DNA of 64,000 nt from a virus, in the UHGV virus genome UHGV-0242533; one strand, written 5' to 3'. Both the position numbers and the translations under genes were made by a program. Below the pieces are notes generated by a model. The model worked only from the letters and a program-made list of their open reading frames with translations. It ran no database searches and had not been told where the DNA came from. Shown here one piece after another: positions 20,986 to 34,644 of the stretch (positions are counted from its first letter, which is position 1; each line of letters begins with the position of its first letter).

Positions 20986-21090
20986 ATAGCTCTGCGCCGT
21001 TAGCTCAATTGTATAGAGCAGTTTCCTTCTAAGAAATTGGTTGGAGGTTAGAATCCTCCACGGTGCGCCAAATTGAATGAGAGGTGTGTT

Positions 21091-26250: not shown

Positions 26251-27222
26251 ATGTCAATCTCCACAACGATCGTACCTCTTAATCTTCAACAAGATTTAGG
26301 GGAACAGAAGTTCTTAGGTCGTGGGTGCTTCGGTATCCACAACTACATGCAAGGCCAGTGTGTAAATGACATTAATGGTGAAGTTATCACGGAAGAAGGG
26401 CGCTATCGTCGCTTCAACCGCGATATCAACTTGCAACTGGAGATGTTGAATTACTGGACTCACTCTTTTCATGGTCATGTTACATCTGATATTGAAAAGA
26501 ATTTGGTTGAAACAGCAGACATTATGAACTCCATGTCTTGCTATCGTGACGTATTTACGATCACTTCAGCGAATAGTGTTGCTGTCAACCTTCGTGAGCA
26601 TCCAGCAGATCAGATCTTCACAGGACTTATGCTTTTCCGTAGCATTCTGGAAGGGCAGTATCGTGGAATGGATTTCCTATCAGAAGGAATTGAAGACAGG
26701 GAAGAGTGGCTGAAGCGTAAACGCATCGGCATCGCTCTAGTGTTAGCTGGGTTGGGTCGTGACTTCTTCGGTGGATGGTCTCAACGAGGAAGAGCCAATG
26801 GGAGTAGCGAGAGCACCTCTATTGTTATTAACAACAATATGTCAGCAGCAGCATTCCTTCCTTTGGTTGTAGACTCTGATGAATACACGAAGCAAGTATG
26901 GGTTCAAAACCCCTTCGGTGTTGGCGACAACGAGAATGGTTATGTTCGTAACCATAACCAAGATGCCTTACGAAGATTTGCTCGTGCTAAAGATCAAGAC
27001 CCGGACGAGTATGAAACAATGTCAGAGTGGTTAAGACTCTGGTCCAACTGTTATGGTCACAAACGTGAAGCAATAGACGACAAGTTGGGAAACATTACAG
27101 TACAAAACTTTACAGCCCGACTGATTCAAAGAACTGGAGCAGATTCCGGTCTTACTCTTGAAGAAGTTGGTAACACAATCTCATCTCTCTTTTCTGAACT
27201 AGTGGAGTATTACAATGACTAA
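26251..27222 (+). CDS. Hypothetical protein (323 aa) in amidoligase cluster
   Basis: ORF track. Confidence 0.55.
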   Translation: MSISTTIVPLNLQQDLGEQKFLGRGCFGIHNYMQGQCVNDINGEVITEEGRYRRFNRDINLQLEMLNYWTHSFHGHVTSDIEKNLVETADIMNSMSCYRDVFTITSANSVAVNLREHPADQIFTGLMLFRSILEGQYRGMDFLSEGIEDREEWLKRKRIGIALVLAGLGRDFFGGWSQRGRANGSSESTSIVINNNMSAAAFLPLVVDSDEYTKQVWVQNPFGVGDNENGYVRNHNQDALRRFARAKDQDPDEYETMSEWLRLWSNCYGHKREAIDDKLGNITVQNFTARLIQRTGADSGLTLEEVGNTISSLFSELVEYYND

Positions 27223-28021
27223 GCGCAAATTCCTTATCGGCTCTGACCCTGAAATGTTTGTTCGTACTAGCAATGGTATCATCACTTCTGTAGCCGGTTT
27301 ATTAGGCTGCTCTAAGGACGATAAGATCGCTCTGGCTAAGGATGTTCGTCTCCAAGAGGACAACGTACTGGCTGAGTTTGATATTGACCCACAGAGCGGT
27401 TTTGAAGCGTTTAACGATAACATGCAACGTGGTATTGATCTCACCAATAATGTCCTGAACAAACTGGACATGGAAACAGCTCCGGGTGTTAGCTCTCACA
27501 TCTTCACTGAAGAAGAGATGAAGACCTTTAATGAATCAGCGTTCATCTTCGGGTGCACTCCTGATTTCAACGCCTTCACTGGTCAGAAAAACCCATCCCC
27601 GACTTCTCAGAATAAGGGACTTCGTACTGCCGGTGGTCACGTACATCTTGGCGTAGTTGGTGCTTTGGATATCACTCTGCAAACTCAGATGATGCTGGGT
27701 GTGTTGTGTGACTACTTCCTGTCTCTCCCAGCAGTAATTATGGACAAAGATACTCGCCGTAAAGAACTCTACGGTAAAGCATCTGCAATCCGTTATAAAG
27801 ACTATGGTATTGAATACCGTTCTCTGTCTAACTTCTGGATTAGTGATCGTGAAAACCGTAAGTTTGTTTACGATCAGGTTGACAAGGTTGTTCAGCAGTG
27901 TGATATGTCCACCCTGATGGCATTGCACTCTCGCCTTCCGATTGAGAAGCTTCATGAAATCATTAACGGGAACAACGTTAAAGAAGCTGACCAGCAGATC
28001 AAACTCCTTCAGGTAGCATAA
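27215..28021 (+). CDS. Putative carboxylate-amine ligase (GCS2/amidoligase-like), 268 aa
   Basis: N-terminal GSDPEMFV acidic motif and GGHVHLG motif, reminiscent of the glutamine-synthetase-like carboxylate-amine ligase fold; weak. Confidence 0.35.
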   Translation: MTKRKFLIGSDPEMFVRTSNGIITSVAGLLGCSKDDKIALAKDVRLQEDNVLAEFDIDPQSGFEAFNDNMQRGIDLTNNVLNKLDMETAPGVSSHIFTEEEMKTFNESAFIFGCTPDFNAFTGQKNPSPTSQNKGLRTAGGHVHLGVVGALDITLQTQMMLGVLCDYFLSLPAVIMDKDTRRKELYGKASAIRYKDYGIEYRSLSNFWISDRENRKFVYDQVDKVVQQCDMSTLMALHSRLPIEKLHEIINGNNVKEADQQIKLLQVA

Positions 28022-28030
28022 GAGGTTATC

Positions 28031-28648
28031 GTGAGCTTAGTAGCTGATTTTTCTCATTACTATAATGGTACATGGATTGCTAAACGAGCAGGCAATATCA
28101 ACCTTCCGTGTTTTGTGATTGGTGTTGAGCAGAGCGGTAACTTCCGCAGCGATGACTTCTCGCATGAAGCAGAACAGGCTCTGTATTTTGTTGTAGAGCA
28201 GTGGTACAAGAACGAGCATGGGAATCTCCGAAACACTACGATGAATATTCCAGTGTTCGACCCAACCTTGATTCTCGAATCACCTGATGTTGGTTATCTG
28301 TTCCATAACGGTAACACTGTAAGCTGGACTCATATCAATCCTGTTCGTCAGAGAGCGAAGGGTTTGATGGGTAACAAGATTCGAAACGCTCCGGGGATTG
28401 GTCGTTCGATCTCTGGTGAAATGGTTTACAGTCTGTTCAATCCTGAATTTGATGGATTGGTTACTCGTTATATTTACATCAATCCTACAGATGGTAAAGT
28501 GCATTATAAAGGTGCACTGGTAGGTCAGGTAGATCTGGAAGCGCCTCGTGACTCTTACGGTCAACAACCGATGCGACTTCTGGAACATTTTCATCACATC
28601 TCTGAAAACCTTAGCAATTATAATATTACGTTGGTGGATTCGTTATGA
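28031..28648 (+). CDS. Hypothetical protein (205 aa)
   Basis: GTG start with RBS agaggt. Confidence 0.45.
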   Translation: MSLVADFSHYYNGTWIAKRAGNINLPCFVIGVEQSGNFRSDDFSHEAEQALYFVVEQWYKNEHGNLRNTTMNIPVFDPTLILESPDVGYLFHNGNTVSWTHINPVRQRAKGLMGNKIRNAPGIGRSISGEMVYSLFNPEFDGLVTRYIYINPTDGKVHYKGALVGQVDLEAPRDSYGQQPMRLLEHFHHISENLSNYNITLVDSL

Positions 28649-29748
28649 CAACTGTAGCGCAAACTTTTGGATATCGAGAAGGTCGTTTAACTGAGGCGCA
28701 TAGTTCAATTGCACTTCAGTGCGGTGTCGGTATTGAACTTGAACTCGAAGGTTCTGAACATATCGAAGCAGATATGTGGGATTGCACAGAGGATGGTTCC
28801 CTGCGTAACGGTTGTGAAATGGTATGTTCACGACCTTACAACGGACAGGAGTTGTTAGACGCTATCAACAACCTGAGTGAAGCAGTAGCTGAATCGCACG
28901 CCGAGGGGACTTGGCGTTGCTCTACTCACGTTCATATGGATATGAGGGATGCTGATAGTAATATCCTCAAGAAGACCATCCTTGCTTGGACCTTCTATGA
29001 AAAGATGCTGTTCAAGTGTTCAGGCTACCATCGTTACCGTAGCAATTTCTGCCCTGCGTTTGCAGTGGTACAAGCACAGGTAATGAATGCCTCTGACGCA
29101 TTTAACTACGATGGTGAAGAATTCTTCAACCGTCTGGTTCGTTCATGGGATAAATATACATCTCTGAACCTTCTGCCACTTGCCCAATACGGTTCAATTG
29201 AGTTCCGTATCAGTGAGCCTAAGTGGAAACGTGGTCAACTTCTCAATCTGGTTAACCGCTTCTTGATGTTGAAGAAGCTGGCTTTAGATAACGCAGATAT
29301 GAGCAATGATCAGTTTATTGAGCACTTAAATACTGTACGATTTGCCCCAATGCTTCCCTACCTTCCTCTGGATTACAATCTGGATGAATCTGATTTGCAT
29401 TCAGGATATTGTATGGCCCGTGATGTTTTGTATTGCCGTTCTCATGAAGTAGAACAGTCTGGTCGTATTCGTTTACGTAGAACTAACTCCAACGGAGATG
29501 TTCTTGTTGACTTACGTCATATGTCAGACTTCTACGGATTCCTTGGATATGTCCGAGGGAACGCTAACAATTTGTACCAAGAGATTCTGGTTATGCTTCG
29601 TACAGCAGACCTATCTCAAGTAAGACACGCTCCAGAACAGCGTATCCGTGCTATTTTTGACTTACTGCGTGAGTCAGGTCACAGTGATAGCAATATCACA
29701 GGGTACATTCCAGACCATCTGGAAAATCAGTTAGAGCAAGCGCTGTAA
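28645..29748 (+). CDS. Putative amidoligase / carboxylate-amine ligase, 367 aa
   Basis: GIELELEG and STHVHMDM motifs, parallel to the upstream ligase-like protein; weak. Confidence 0.35.
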   Translation: MTTVAQTFGYREGRLTEAHSSIALQCGVGIELELEGSEHIEADMWDCTEDGSLRNGCEMVCSRPYNGQELLDAINNLSEAVAESHAEGTWRCSTHVHMDMRDADSNILKKTILAWTFYEKMLFKCSGYHRYRSNFCPAFAVVQAQVMNASDAFNYDGEEFFNRLVRSWDKYTSLNLLPLAQYGSIEFRISEPKWKRGQLLNLVNRFLMLKKLALDNADMSNDQFIEHLNTVRFAPMLPYLPLDYNLDESDLHSGYCMARDVLYCRSHEVEQSGRIRLRRTNSNGDVLVDLRHMSDFYGFLGYVRGNANNLYQEILVMLRTADLSQVRHAPEQRIRAIFDLLRESGHSDSNITGYIPDHLENQLEQAL

Positions 29749-29827
29749 TCAATGGGTGCCTCTGACAAAGGGGCACAATTTAAAGGTTAATTAGATGAAA
29801 GGGTTTACCCTTCAGGTGGATTAGAAA

Positions 29828-31858
29828 ATTTGTGGCATCGTATTAGCTGGCGGTAATCTGTCAAGCACTGATTTAGACGTATTCAACCAACTCTTTTATG
29901 CTGGAGTATTCCGAGGACAACATTCCTCCGGCATCTTTGGTCAGCGTAAAAGCACTAAGGAAGTCTTCACTTATAAAGAAGCTCTTCCTTCTTTCGCATT
30001 CATCCTACAAGATGAGTACAAGAAGCATACCACTGGTGAAACAGCTTACACTGTAGCACCTTCATGGATTGTTGGTCACAGTCGTCATGCAACGAAAGGT
30101 GCAGTTAACGCCAAGAACGCCCATCCTTTCCAACATGGTAACATCACTCTGGTTCATAATGGAACCTTGATGGACCAAGACCTGTTACCTGACAGTAAAA
30201 ACTTCGAGGTAGACAGTGAGAACATCTGCCACTCTATTAACACTATTGGTGCAGCAGAGACTATTCAAAAGCTGGATGGTGCTTTCACCTTAATCTGGCA
30301 TGATGCTTCTGATAACCGTCTTCATATCATCCGTAACGAAGAGCGTCCATTCCATCTCGCACGTTGTAACAGAGATTGGTTTGGTGCTTCTGAAGAAGAC
30401 ATGTTGATGTGGATTCTGAAGCGTTCTAGATCTCACAAGAACCGTATTGATGAGCATTTTGAATGTAAAGTTGGTACAGAATATATCTTTGATATGTCAA
30501 ACAACAGCATGACTCTGGTTGAAGAGGTCGCCCACGAGCTTCCGGTTTTTACGGTAATCAATCGTTGGGGCAATTACTACTCGAACAACTACAGCCAAAG
30601 CAACTATCAAAGTTCCTCAAAAAGCAATACAAGCAATCCTTACGACACGAAGCCGGGAGTGACAGCGGCAGACGTTCGTCGAAGAAACGCAGTGGTAAGT
30701 CAAAACAAAATCGCAAGCGATCGAAACATTGATATTCGCCGTGATATGACTGTGGAAATCACACCACATGAGTTTGTTCCTTATGCAGCTGCTGGTGCTG
30801 TTCCTTCTCGTGGTAAGATGATCGGTTATATCTACGATGAGAAGTCTCAAGAGTATATCGAAGGTGATGTTCATAATGTAGACATTAAGGCTTATCAGGA
30901 TGCACTGAAAGACCCTAAAATTGTTTACCGTGGAACAGTATCCTGCATCTCCGAAGTTAATGCTATGGTTCGTTTAGTGATCACAGCAGGTCGTTTTGTT
31001 GACCCATCTCTGGAGAAAAAGGAGCCTGAGTCTACTACTGCTGACTTTGATGATGATATCCCTTTTGACATGAATGATAGTTTCGTCAACAAGAATGGCG
31101 TTACTATCACTCGTAAATTCTGGGAAGCACACTCTCATGGTGACTGTGGTGGTTGTGACAAACACATTGATTGGAAGGACGCACCTAAAGCAGTCTTCGC
31201 ATATCAGTGCTACTGGCATCCTGAATGTCTGGAAGGTTTGACTAAACCTAAAGAGGAAGAAGAGGAGGAAACTCCTATTGGTGTTTGTGAAATCTGCGGT
31301 GAAGTTAAAACAGAGAATGAGTTCGATGATGAACTTAGTCGTCTTCGTGGTGAAGATATCTGTAAAGTCTGCGCTGTAGAAGTAAAGAAGAAAGTATCTA
31401 ATGCTACGATCAAAGATGGTTATGTATGGATTAAAGCAACAGATACAACAAACGCCCGTCGTCCTGAATTTGCTTTACGTGTAACTGAAGATATGATTGG
31501 TCGTATGACTGTATTACCTTCCTCAGCGAAACAGACAGGCATCACTCTGGAGGATGTTGTTGATGCTTATGTTGAGAAACGTAGCAACAGTATTTTTGCA
31601 ATCTCAACTAAGCCAAAAAAGGAGGAACCTGCTGAGAAAGCAGGTGTGTTTCCTGAATCACGAACAGCTCTCCGAAAAACTGTTGTCAGCTTCGACGGAA
31701 ACCGAAGCACTGACTTCACCAAAGCCATGTGGTCAACCCTCGGATACTGCTCAGAGTGTTTTAAGCAGATTCCGTGGCGCGATGCTGAAAGTTGTACGCT
31801 TGGTTCTATGAATCAAGTTTATTGTAATTCTCCTAAATGTTCATTGAATAGAGGTTAA
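29828..31858 (+). CDS. Class-II (Ntn) glutamine amidotransferase domain fused to C-terminal multi-zinc-ribbon domain; probable AUU start
   Basis: Translation from 29828: (I/M)CGIVLAGG...FRGQHSSGIFG...VGHSRHATKGAVNAKNAHPF...ITLVHNGTL, matching PurF/GlmS-type motifs. An in-frame TAG at 29822 leaves ATT as the only start that exposes the Cys; SD AGGTGGA is 7 nt upstream. C-terminal half has several CxxC pairs. Confidence 0.7.
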   Translation: MCGIVLAGGNLSSTDLDVFNQLFYAGVFRGQHSSGIFGQRKSTKEVFTYKEALPSFAFILQDEYKKHTTGETAYTVAPSWIVGHSRHATKGAVNAKNAHPFQHGNITLVHNGTLMDQDLLPDSKNFEVDSENICHSINTIGAAETIQKLDGAFTLIWHDASDNRLHIIRNEERPFHLARCNRDWFGASEEDMLMWILKRSRSHKNRIDEHFECKVGTEYIFDMSNNSMTLVEEVAHELPVFTVINRWGNYYSNNYSQSNYQSSSKSNTSNPYDTKPGVTAADVRRRNAVVSQNKIASDRNIDIRRDMTVEITPHEFVPYAAAGAVPSRGKMIGYIYDEKSQEYIEGDVHNVDIKAYQDALKDPKIVYRGTVSCISEVNAMVRLVITAGRFVDPSLEKKEPESTTADFDDDIPFDMNDSFVNKNGVTITRKFWEAHSHGDCGGCDKHIDWKDAPKAVFAYQCYWHPECLEGLTKPKEEEEEETPIGVCEICGEVKTENEFDDELSRLRGEDICKVCAVEVKKKVSNATIKDGYVWIKATDTTNARRPEFALRVTEDMIGRMTVLPSSAKQTGITLEDVVDAYVEKRSNSIFAISTKPKKEEPAEKAGVFPESRTALRKTVVSFDGNRSTDFTKAMWSTLGYCSECFKQIPWRDAESCTLGSMNQVYCNSPKCSLNRG

Positions 31859-32301: not shown

Positions 32302-33495
32302 ATGACTACTCGTATCCGTGTTCTTCCTTATGGTCCTTCTGATTCAGTTCGTGAACTTACTTCTGCAATTAACACTAAGATTCAGGAACTTCGCTTAAAC
32401 GCTAACGTAATGTCTCTGGTATCAGAAGGCTCTCGTTATCGTTCTCGAGTTGGTGATATTGTTGTCAACTATGGAAACCGTCGATACAATGATTCTTTCT
32501 TTGGTGGGGCAACTGTATTGAACTCTGTGGTTGCCTTGAACCGAGCAGCTAATAAGATTGCAGCATTTAACGCATTGCGTTTAGCTGAAGTTAAAACTGT
32601 TGAATACACCACTGATCGTGAATTAGCTCTGAACTGGAACCAGAACGAAATTGTTTACGAACGTGCAACATTAACTGGTCACTCTGGTGAAGGTATCACT
32701 GTTCGTCTTCCGACAGAAGGTGTTGCAGATGCCCCTCTATACACCAAAGGTATTCAAGGCCCACGTCGTGAATGGCGTGTTCATGTATTTGAAGGTGTTA
32801 TCACTTACGTTCAGAAGAAGATTCGTCGTAATGGATACCGTGATCTGTCAACCTATCGTGAAGACATTCGCAATCACCATACTGGTTGGGTTTATTCCTC
32901 AAACTTCCAAGATGCACCACCTCCTCAAGTATTGATTCAAGCTCACAAAGCTGTAGAAGCTCTTGGATTGAACTTTGGTGCTGTTGATCTAATAAGCAAA
33001 GTTTCTAACGCTTGGGTTCTGGAAGTAAATACTGCTCCTGGGCTGACTGGTACAACTCTGGAAACTTACACTCATAATATTGTTGAGTTTGTTAAGAGCT
33101 TCTCTGGAGTTGATCCTGATTATCGTGTTGCTTACGAACTGCCTGTTGAAGAAGTGGAAGAGTTTGCTGAATCAGCAGATGACGAGAACTTTGCATTGAC
33201 AGCTGAACCAGTTGTTGAAGAGTCTTCGGAGCCTGTTCCTGAAACAATGCAAGTGGAAGAACAAGGGTTAGAGATCAACCCTGTCACCCGTCGTACTTTA
33301 CGTCGTGGTTATTACATCGCTAATATCAAGCACCCTGAGAATGGTTCAACTGTAGCAAGTAATGTGATCTTGTTCTTCTGTGGTCGTAACTTCTACCGCT
33401 CTGGGTGGAACGCACCGATTAGTGATCGCCAGCTTGGTCGTGTGTTGCAGATTAACAGTCTTACTCTGAATGATGGCACTGTTGTAAACTACTAA
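32302..33495 (+). CDS. ATP-grasp family ligase (397 aa)
   Basis: C-terminal motif AWVLEVNTAPGLTG (ATP-grasp E-x-N signature) plus RimK-like core. Confidence 0.6.
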   Translation: MTTRIRVLPYGPSDSVRELTSAINTKIQELRLNANVMSLVSEGSRYRSRVGDIVVNYGNRRYNDSFFGGATVLNSVVALNRAANKIAAFNALRLAEVKTVEYTTDRELALNWNQNEIVYERATLTGHSGEGITVRLPTEGVADAPLYTKGIQGPRREWRVHVFEGVITYVQKKIRRNGYRDLSTYREDIRNHHTGWVYSSNFQDAPPPQVLIQAHKAVEALGLNFGAVDLISKVSNAWVLEVNTAPGLTGTTLETYTHNIVEFVKSFSGVDPDYRVAYELPVEEVEEFAESADDENFALTAEPVVEESSEPVPETMQVEEQGLEINPVTRRTLRRGYYIANIKHPENGSTVASNVILFFCGRNFYRSGWNAPISDRQLGRVLQINSLTLNDGTVVNY

Positions 33496-34224: not shown

Positions 34225-34644
34225 ATGTCAGAAGTAATTTACGTAGCAACTTATGGTTCTCTTCGTCGTGGTCAAGCTAACTATTTAGTTAATGATCGAG
34301 CTGGTGCTAAGTCTATTGGCGAGGGTTGGACTGAAGATAACTTCGATCTGTTCCGTTACGGTGGTTCCTACTTCCCGAGCATCTCTCTCGCACACAGCAA
34401 TAGCAATAAGCCTGTTCGTGTAGAAGTGTTTGCTACTGACAAAGCAGGTCTGGAAGGTCCATATGACCGACTGGAAGGTTACAACAAACGTAGCCCTGAA
34501 GACAGCTTCTATCAGCGTACTCAGATTGCTGTTAAGATGGACTCAGGTGAAACTGTTATCGCTTGGATTTATCACATTGACGAAGAACAAGATGTTCTGG
34601 TCGAATCTGGCGACTGGTCAGAGTATCTGAAAAGTGAATCTTGA
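34225..34644 (+). CDS. Gamma-glutamyl cyclotransferase-like (AIG2/GGCT fold) protein
   Basis: N-terminal YVATYGSLRRG motif and size of about 140 aa. Confidence 0.55.
   Translation: MSEVIYVATYGSLRRGQANYLVNDRAGAKSIGEGWTEDNFDLFRYGGSYFPSISLAHSNSNKPVRVEVFATDKAGLEGPYDRLEGYNKRSPEDSFYQRTQIAVKMDSGETVIAWIYHIDEEQDVLVESGDWSEYLKSES

Follow-up and report, generated by a model that had tools for sequence, protein, structure and literature searches.

A phage glutamine amidotransferase gene that appears to start on AUU within a leader cassette shared by distant phages

We analysed a 64,000-nucleotide (nt) stretch of DNA from the virus genome UHGV-0242533 (the window) and propose that its gene for a class II glutamine amidotransferase is translated from an AUU codon at position 29828, with recruitment of ribosomes by a Shine–Dalgarno (SD) sequence, as part of a conserved initiation cassette. 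We put the probability of this explanation at roughly 0.85. Class II amidotransferases, or N-terminal nucleophile (Ntn) enzymes, require a free N-terminal cysteine as their nucleophile. A first-pass annotation of the window had suggested that the gene starts on AUU, which would expose this catalytic Cys. Judged by sequence comparison, three points go beyond that suggestion: the start is already annotated in a database record, a short open reading frame (ORF) in front of it is not conserved, and the leader is a cassette shared by distant phages.

Phage records that match the 2.5 kb around the amidotransferase start number 98, and in 82 the match spans at least 80% of the query. Among the matches listed, the top 30 are Escherichia coli and Shigella phages of the phiEco32 type (Kuravirus, Gordonclarkvirinae), with 97–98% identity. 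By this similarity we assign the window to a phiEco32-like Kuravirus and its amidotransferase gene to the homologues of gp83 (phi32_83). In EU330206, its RefSeq copy and phage Bas90, the 2031-nt coding sequence (CDS) has this ATT as its first codon, and the AUU start of this gene is already known from the phiEco32 annotation. The features around the start are given below; labels from L007 to L136 denote the homologous viral and metagenomic loci that we compared, L007 being Aeromonas phage BUCT695 and L092 phage T4S1-k141_470236.

29828–31858, + strand: full class II (Ntn) glutamine amidotransferase CDS, 676 codons with the initiator Met at the AUU counted in, computed mass 76.2 kDa; the phi32_83 start maps here
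29828–29830, + strand: ATT (AUU), the probable initiation codon; homologues have ATG, TTG, GTG, ATT or ATC at the same position
29831–29833, + strand: TGT, the catalytic N-terminal nucleophile Cys (mature residue 1); C1-G2 is invariant in the alignment with R28, N110-G111 and D128-S129
29814–29820, + strand: SD sequence AGGTGGA, 7 nt before the ATT; AGGAGG in most other cassette lineages
29822–29824, + strand: in-frame TAG, one codon before the ATT; terminates the mini-ORF here and homing-endonuclease ORFs in L099, L120 and L136
29795–29824, + strand: mini-ORF of nine codons (MKGFTLQVD, then stop), same frame as the gene; confined to the Kuravirus/BUCT695 lineage

Read directly, the sequence runs from ATG at 29795 through AAA GGG TTT ACC CTT CAG GTG GAT to TAG (29822–29824), AAA (29825–29827), ATT (29828–29830), TGT (29831–29833) and GGC ATC, and the ORF ends on a stop codon at 31856–31858. 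The coordinates given in the first-pass annotation for the Cys codon, ATT, TAG, SD, mini-ORF and stop are all correct, as are three of its statements: that ATT, AAA and TAG precede the Cys in frame, so that no ATG, GTG or TTG can set it at position 2; that a good SD lies 7 nt before the ATT; and that the nine-codon mini-ORF is real and in frame. Past the TAG, the first in-frame ATG, GTG or TTG is the TTG at 30167, codon 114 from the ATT (113 from the Cys). The intervening stretch (29831–30166, 113 codons) has zero in-frame canonical starts, with no Met and no Val or Leu spelled GTG or TTG; this absence is not conserved in phage SU7, which has an ATG at codon 10. The window gene therefore shows what marks an AUU-type start: an AUU with a functionally spaced SD and no canonical start nearby to take its place.

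The position of the start is constant across the family. In a protein-based survey of IMG/VR that yielded 59 scorable homologous viral loci, the codon directly before the catalytic Cys was ATG in 42, ATT in 8, ATC in 2, TTG in 3 and GTG in 3, and the start adjoined the Cys codon in 58 of the 59; in L049 it lay one codon further upstream (ATG-TGC-TGT). Near relatives have TTG (L026 and L027) or ATG (L025) there, more distant homologues have ATG immediately 5′ of the Cys codon, and PHROG profiles place Met at position 1 with the window Cys aligned to position 2. AUU and AUC starts make up about 14% (around 1/7) of the sampled lineages of this phage amidotransferase family. All ATT and ATC loci carry an in-frame stop 2–7 codons upstream with no canonical start between, and their predicted SD duplexes are stronger than those of the ATG group (median −10.2 versus −5.95 kcal/mol, p=6e-5). 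A cognate or near-cognate start codon always stands at this position in the family, and the claim of an AUU start that exposes the catalytic Cys holds up. Several loci have tandem near-cognate codons before the Cys (ATT ATT TGT in L066, ATC ATC TGT in L070 and L089), and ATT TTG TGT in L027 is a possible intermediate between ATT and TTG starts.

Sequencing error is excluded as the source of the ATT, because 69 phage records show ≥99% identity to the 76-nt leader region and no record comes that close to a version of the query with ATG in place of ATT. An ATG that resequencing might reveal, as the first-pass annotation had envisaged, is found in 0 of 99 phage records. The codons directly after the ATT also behave as coding sequence. 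Between the window and phage KBNP1711, 67 of the 113 codons upstream of the TTG at 30167 differ, 45 of these 67 synonymously, and the differences fall 16/13/59 on the first, second and third codon positions. This strong third-position and synonymous bias indicates that the first 113 codons are translated in this frame.

The same evidence bears on the proposal that the real product is a 563-amino-acid (aa) protein from the TTG at 30167 and that the part upstream is non-coding or a decayed remnant. That TTG is the first canonical start, gene callers produce the 563-aa form, and the SU10 paper lists a protein of 63.8 kDa (PMC4281155). The listed value corresponds to the 563-aa TTG product (63.87 kDa), against 76.2 kDa for the full length, and is the mass of a database entry, not a measured one. 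Starting at the TTG would remove Cys1, R28 and the GH-R-AT motif, whereas codons 1–113 encode all the invariant catalytic residues and show the substitution bias described above; moreover, no SD precedes the TTG, which is a Leu codon within a conserved HNGTL motif. We regard this short product as hardly credible. Gene callers jump to codon 114 because the first 113 codons hold no canonical start codon, and the annotation record reflects such choices. In many records the leader carries no annotation; the KBNP1711 entry begins the gene at a downstream start (627 aa), the SU7 entry at an internal ATG (667 aa), and automatic gene calls in the protein database take 563-, 627- and 667-aa forms. In T4S1 (L092, 2548–2562) the deposited CDS begins at an internal ATG three codons past the catalytic Cys, so the annotated protein lacks Cys-Gly-Ile; from its leader sequence, we place the true start of T4S1 at the cassette ATT. 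As annotated in many Kuravirus-like records and at least one distant phage, the amidotransferase thus lacks its catalytic Cys, and ATT and ATC need to be allowed as starts where an Ntn nucleophile fixes the N-terminus.

Proteomics of SU10 detected 9 peptides of the amidotransferase (PMC4281155), which indicates that the protein is made and is uninformative on its N-terminus. The predicted N-terminal peptide of the Cys1 enzyme is CGIVLAGGNLSSTDLDVFNQLFYAGVFR. In the same study, mass spectrometry of a concentrated phage preparation detected four early proteins: the amidotransferase, the ATP-grasp protein, the YtfP/GGACT protein and gp86 (PMC4281155 Table 2).

The mini-ORF that ends one codon before the AUU raises two further possibilities. 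In the first, termination–reinitiation, the mini-ORF is translated from the ATG at 29795, ribosomes stop at the UAG at 29822 and restart 3 nt on at the AUU, and de novo initiation is minor. Three genera have the in-frame mini-ORF with 100% conservation; the stop–3 nt–AUU spacing is that of infC, where reinitiation supplies about half of the output (PMC3592434); and a homing-endonuclease ORF ends at the same UAG in L099, L120 and L136. However, L092, L104, L123 and L124 have no ORF with a canonical start that ends at the cassette UAG, BUCT695 lacks the AAGG that would serve the mini-ORF as SD, both substitutions in the BUCT695 mini-ORF are non-synonymous, and the SD before the AUU suffices for de novo initiation. 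Reinitiation as the main route is therefore improbable in our judgement, although on our analysis it may add to expression wherever an upstream ORF exists. Four-codon versions of the mini-ORF occur in L024 and L116.

The second possibility concerns the N-terminus itself. Some Ntn amidotransferases carry a propeptide, as do Bacillus subtilis PurF and glutamate synthase. If ribosomes started at the ATG at 29795 and read through the UAG, an 11-residue propeptide (MKGFTLQVD-X-KI) would be removed autocatalytically to free the Cys, as in B. subtilis PurF, and the mini-ORF is indeed in frame with the amidotransferase. Yet most cassette lineages lack the mini-ORF, the UAG is invariant, with no sense replacement in about 100 records, the sole transfer RNA (tRNA) gene in the window is for Arg(TCT), and distant homologues have ATG directly before the Cys. 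We consider readthrough highly improbable. Because no such upstream ORF exists in L092, L104, L123 and L124, neither readthrough from 29795 nor obligatory termination–reinitiation is the general mechanism, and AUU initiation with direct SD recruitment remains our favoured explanation.

Related candidates were considered and set aside. A propeptide-type Ntn enzyme does not fit the in-frame TAG that stands two codons before the Cys in all cassette loci, and programmed stop-codon readthrough does not fit the four loci without an upstream ORF or the non-synonymous BUCT695 changes. A suppressor tRNA was discarded on the window's only tRNA gene, a tRNA-Arg (anticodon TCT) at 20994–21070. Frameshifting on the AAAUUUG heptamer would shift between two wrong frames, and the overlapping UUG opens only an unconserved 8-codon ORF.

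The AUU belongs to a compact leader that recurs in phages whose proteins have diverged widely. From 5′ to 3′ this cassette consists of a stem-loop of 5–6 bp, a strong SD, an A/U-rich spacer whose in-frame UAG stands one codon ahead of the start, then the AUU itself and UGU-GG. Two of its elements in the window are:

29818–29835, + strand: 18-mer GGATTAGAAAATTTGTGG, common to about 10 divergent phage amidotransferase lineages
29799–29812, + strand: stem-loop AAGGG-TTTA-CCCTT, one nt 5′ of the SD, marked by covariation and by a contrast in minimum free energy (MFE)

The cassette is found in Kuravirus, BUCT695, the Zobellviridae phage T4S1, L024 (IMG/VR) and six metagenomic lineages. The window and two other genera agree at 47 of 47 positions in the stretch directly before the Cys codon, although the coding DNA of these three genera is about 77–80% identical; because 67–74 of the adjoining 113 codons differ, the identity of the leader is more than chance. 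Aeromonas phage BUCT695, a member of a different family, has an almost identical leader. Across the ten cassette lineages, median protein identity over the first 200 residues is 32%, and the 60 nt after TGTGG show background DNA identity. In 596 Gb of bacterial genomes, a search with the 18-mer returned six chance hits and one mis-binned Kuravirus contig, and a search with a 21-mer returned none.

A stem-loop lies just 5′ of the SD in every cassette locus, and its sequence varies: AAGGG/CCCUU, GGGGU/ACCCC, CAAGC/GCUUG, GCAGG/CCUGC, CAUGU/ACAUG and CCUGA/UCAGG. When eight distinct leaders were aligned, with the stems picked by eye, all 40 of 40 cells paired and 17 were changed on both sides. 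The covariation score was 1.14 against 0.22 in shuffles (0 of 500 reached the observed value), and sliding the partner strand cut pairing to at most 48%. In a 29-nt window upstream of the SD, median hairpin MFE was −6.8 kcal/mol for cassette loci and −0.55 kcal/mol for ATG loci (p=8e-6). The same type of hairpin occurs in L027, which has a TTG start, and in L066, which has an ATT start and a different spacer. An MFE alternative that sequesters the SD was dropped, as two BUCT695 substitutions break its pairing.

Searches for other kinds of element around the start were negative. An Rfam scan of 29650–29950 (E up to 10), glutamine riboswitches included, gave chance hits only, the best at 16.7 bits against a gathering score of 44. 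The palindrome AAGGGTTTACCCTT and the spacer GGATTAGAAAATT each occur only once in the window, which rules them out as repeated operators, and a scan for sigma-70 promoters and intrinsic terminators gave nothing relevant. One further hairpin lies upstream:

29755–29777, + strand: intergenic hairpin after the amidoligase stop, GC-rich and terminator-like but with no T-run; not called by the terminator scan

Its stem has compensatory changes in SU7, ECBP2 and Bas86 (GTGCC/GGCAC to GCGC/GCGC). Next to it, the motif T(T/A)TAAA(T/G)GT(A/T)AA stands at 29779–29790 in the window and also, around 20–45 nt before the start, in L007, L025, L026, L027, L033 and L035–L038. The form TTTAAA(G/T)GT(A/T)AA is enriched in the window (11 matches with at most 1 mismatch, 4.7 expected), and the AATGTA core resembles the phiEco32 gp36-sigma promoter motif tAATGTATAtA (PMC4281155). 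If the motif is a promoter, the transcript would carry the cassette hairpin at its 5′ end.

Homing endonucleases frequently accompany the cassette. The amidotransferase is directly preceded by an HNH_3-type gene in L026, L092, L120, L123, L136 and UFV-P2; L099 has a different HNH family at the site (PHROG 374), and L115 has an HNH-AP2 gene there. The amidotransferase of L115 is 98% identical to that of L099, with the junction right at the SD, and the two loci (L099, Ga0105340_1016661; L115, Ga0137452_1058041) have homologous flanks on both sides, which looks like a hotspot of endonuclease swapping. In BUCT695, positions 2304–2510 between the amidoligase and the leader hold a decayed homing-endonuclease gene (HNH_3 plus helix-turn-helix), broken by a stop and unannotated in the record. 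An endonuclease gene stands upstream in 6 of 10 cassette lineages against 2 of around 45 others (Fisher p about 2e-4). In the window, 29748–29828 holds no such gene.

These observations suggest that the leader might simply hitch-hike: HNH genes would insert upstream and co-convert the adjacent tens of nucleotides, ATT included, so that AUU would still be the start with no part in regulation. In a variant of this idea, the ATT might be a polymorphism that confers immunity to cleavage beside the invariant Cys-Gly codons. Mobilisation of flanking DNA by free-standing homing endonucleases is documented (PMC2790892, PMC2330249), and hitch-hiking would account for the excess of intact or decayed endonuclease genes beside the cassette, for the occupation of one site by three different HNH-type families, for the L099–L115 pair with its different endonuclease genes beside near-identical downstream sequence, and for the patchy distribution of cassette lineages, which a rough protein tree intersperses with ATG lineages. 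Other features are harder to reconcile with it. DNA identity drops to background right after TGTGG in all pairs, with no longer conversion tracts visible; with proteins only about 32% identical, no homology is left for homing; covariation in the hairpin stems beside an unchanging 3′ part has the look of selection on RNA structure; the cassette occurs without an endonuclease gene in Kuravirus, L024, L104 and L124; and in UFV-P2 the endonuclease gene accompanies an ATG start. We think it unlikely that hitch-hiking explains the leader, without dismissing it. The covarying hairpin and the sharp drop in identity after TGTGG favour an old, selected initiation region with endonucleases settling beside it on account of its conservation, and the patchy distribution and endonuclease association favour mobility between phages.

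How such a leader might work can be sketched from known biochemistry. Ribosomes would be recruited by the SD AGGUGGA, 7 nt upstream of the AUU at 29828. The initiator tRNA would put formylmethionine at the AUU, and deformylase and methionine aminopeptidase would then strip it and free Cys1, steps that are established biochemistry. The weak start codon would keep a potentially wasteful glutaminase low and make its output sensitive to initiation factor 3 (IF3) and host physiology, and the strong SD and A-rich spacer would offset the weak codon enough for initiation. The UAG would halt ribosomes arriving from upstream (from the mini-ORF here, from homing-endonuclease ORFs elsewhere), preventing an N-terminally extended, dead enzyme, and ribosomes halted there may reinitiate, as at thrS–infC. 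Finally, the stem-loop would insulate the initiation region and keep the SD and AUU accessible despite a variable upstream context that often holds HNH genes. Weak, conditional AUU initiation is documented (PMC3592434, PMC5499595, PMC2268962). Output from AUU is several-fold lower and is inhibited by excess IF3 (PMC2268962, PMC5499595), AUU reporters compete poorly with AUG mRNAs and are reduced under nutrient limitation and by ppGpp (PMC3592434, PMC5499595, PMC2268962), and at the infC junction UAA GGU AUU, reinitiation and de novo initiation contribute about equally (PMC3592434).

A broader proposal is that the hairpin-SD-UAG-AAA-AUU arrangement is a portable module of translational control, recognised by a trans-acting factor or ribosome state, or moved by homing endonucleases that use the adjacent landing pad. 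We advance this tentatively and at less than even odds. If it is true, this would be the first conserved non-AUG initiation cassette shared horizontally among unrelated phages, tying start-codon choice to mobile elements. The cassette appears to be new in its combination of recurrent AUU and AUC starts within an enzyme family, a leader shared at the nucleotide level, a covarying hairpin and homing-endonuclease neighbours.

Several observations weigh against AUU initiation as part of a conserved cassette. The SD of the window (AGGUGG, −5.9 kcal/mol) is not stronger than the median of the ATG group. The SU10 spectra were searched against the shortened 563-aa entry (63.87 kDa), which puts the N-terminus outside their reach. 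Nine of the cassette lineages were retrieved by leader-region BLAST or an exact 18-mer search, so that the 18-mer identity is partly by construction, and the choice of stems by eye limits the covariation count in a similar way; the MFE contrast with ATG loci is independent of both. Across the full 112-nt intergenic region, the predicted fold has no significant stability advantage over shuffles (z=−1.28). A strict rule that an upstream homing endonuclease entails a non-ATG start fails on UFV-P2, which has an HNH gene and ATG. The functional roles of the AUU, the UAG and the hairpin, lastly, are ones that we infer.

The encoded protein combines a recognisable catalytic domain with an unusual C-terminal half. 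Its predicted parts are:

29831–30550, + strand: Ntn (class II) glutaminase domain, residues 1–240 (Pfam GATase_6/7/4; Foldseek AsnB, EgtC and PurF; alignment)
30745–31005, + strand: predicted OB/S1-like beta-barrel, about residues 306–391, preceded by a long helix
31145–31228, + strand: predicted zinc site 1 (C439, C442, H463, C466), invariant alignment columns
31286–31372, + strand: predicted zinc site 2 (C486, C489, C511, C514), invariant alignment columns
31748–31840, + strand: predicted zinc site 3 (C640, C643, C665, C670), invariant alignment columns

GATase_6 matches with E=1e-14, and C1-G2, R28, N110-G111 and D128-S129 are invariant in an alignment of 13 homologues. Foldseek matches to AsnB, EgtC and PurF have E-values of 4e-5 to 1e-3, on a modelled N-domain of low predicted local distance difference test (pLDDT) score, and sequence similarity to solved structures is marginal (E ≥0.09). 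Because the full-length AF2 model is poor in the N-domain, the C-terminal half was modelled separately. A low-complexity linker follows the glutaminase domain. Pfam finds no domain beyond residue 192, leaving the C-terminal ~430 aa unmatched, and the CxxC pairs there are conserved, which agrees with the earlier view that this region is no standard synthase domain. Zinc sites 1 and 3 share, by eye in the alignment, the repeat motif T-x-x-x-W ... C-x-x-C ... I-x-W-(K/R)-D-A, and site 3 looks like a paralogue of site 1. Taken together, the predictions describe a C-terminal half that has no synthase domain and instead joins an OB/S1-like barrel to three zinc ribbons, an architecture characteristic of this phage family.

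The gene sits among predicted ligation enzymes:

27215–28021, + strand: COOH-NH2 ligase type 2 (PF14395; Pfam)
28645–29748, + strand: Amidoligase_2 (PF12224; Pfam), the upstream neighbour
32302–33495, + strand: ATP-grasp-like ligase, phi32_80 homologue (weak Dala_Dala_lig_C hit)
34225–34644, + strand: gamma-glutamyl cyclotransferase-like protein (GGACT/AIG2, PF06094; Pfam)

The order COOH-NH2_lig, Amidoligase_2, amidotransferase, DUF7195, ATP-grasp-like, GGACT is that of phiEco32 and is also found in L025–L027. A phage amidoligase, class II amidotransferase (GAT-II), ATP-grasp and AIG2 neighbourhood is attributed to Iyer, Abhiman, Burroughs and Aravind 2009 (cited in PMC10580990), and the same neighbourhood occurs in LUZ24-like phages (PMC3890496). 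Its chemistry is predicted only: peptide or metabolite ligation, possibly cell-wall modification. The stand-alone glutaminase presumably works with the amidoligases, the ATP-grasp ligase and the gamma-glutamyl cyclotransferase in a gamma-glutamyl or peptide-ligation pathway. In L024 (266–886) and L070, the upstream gene is a Peptidase_C26 or class I amidotransferase-like gene instead of an amidoligase; the Ntn enzyme thus sits in more than one gene context.

AUU and AUC initiation is very rare in bacteria, yet these codons serve around one in seven of the lineages sampled here, with strong SDs and a nearby upstream stop. The natural series of ATG, TTG, GTG, ATT and ATC on one gene offers a way to study why weak starts are selected. 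A leader of 18–22 nt that stays constant while the adjoining coding sequence diverges to background, with a covarying hairpin and often homing-endonuclease genes in front of it, is, in addition, a compact case for separating selection on an initiation region from spread by mobile elements.

The closest known counterpart is phiEco32 gp83 (phi32_83, ABY52884.1 / YP_001671828.1), the same gene at 97.9% DNA identity over the 2.5-kb query region. Its leader differs from that of the window by a single substitution, in the loop of the upstream intergenic hairpin, and its deposited CDS starts on the same ATT. With PurF, GlmS, AsnB and EgtC the enzyme shares the positions of the N-terminal Cys nucleophile, the Arg, the Asn-Gly and the Asp, along with Pfam GATase_6/7, and Foldseek matches of its low-pLDDT N-domain model suggest a fold like that of AsnB, EgtC and PurF. 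Unlike PurF, GlmS and AsnB, it has no phosphoribosyltransferase, SIS or AANH synthase domain, and it resembles EgtC in being a stand-alone Ntn enzyme without a fused synthase.

The endonuclease genes recall the free-standing homing endonucleases of T4-like phages (mobE, segB), which are likewise small HNH genes that lie in intergenic positions beside highly conserved coding sequence. In those phages flanking DNA is mobilised (PMC2790892, PMC2330249), whereas the window itself is without an endonuclease gene and homing by the HNH_3 genes of its relatives is putative. For the start itself, the nearest parallels are E. coli infC and pcnB. There, too, an AUU is served by an SD, and the stop–3 nt–AUU layout of infC is like the UAG AAA AUU found here. 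The proteins, by contrast, are unrelated. The phage AUU also differs in having a covarying hairpin and in being shared at the nucleotide level between distant phages, in a family in which AUU and AUC starts are frequent rather than unique.

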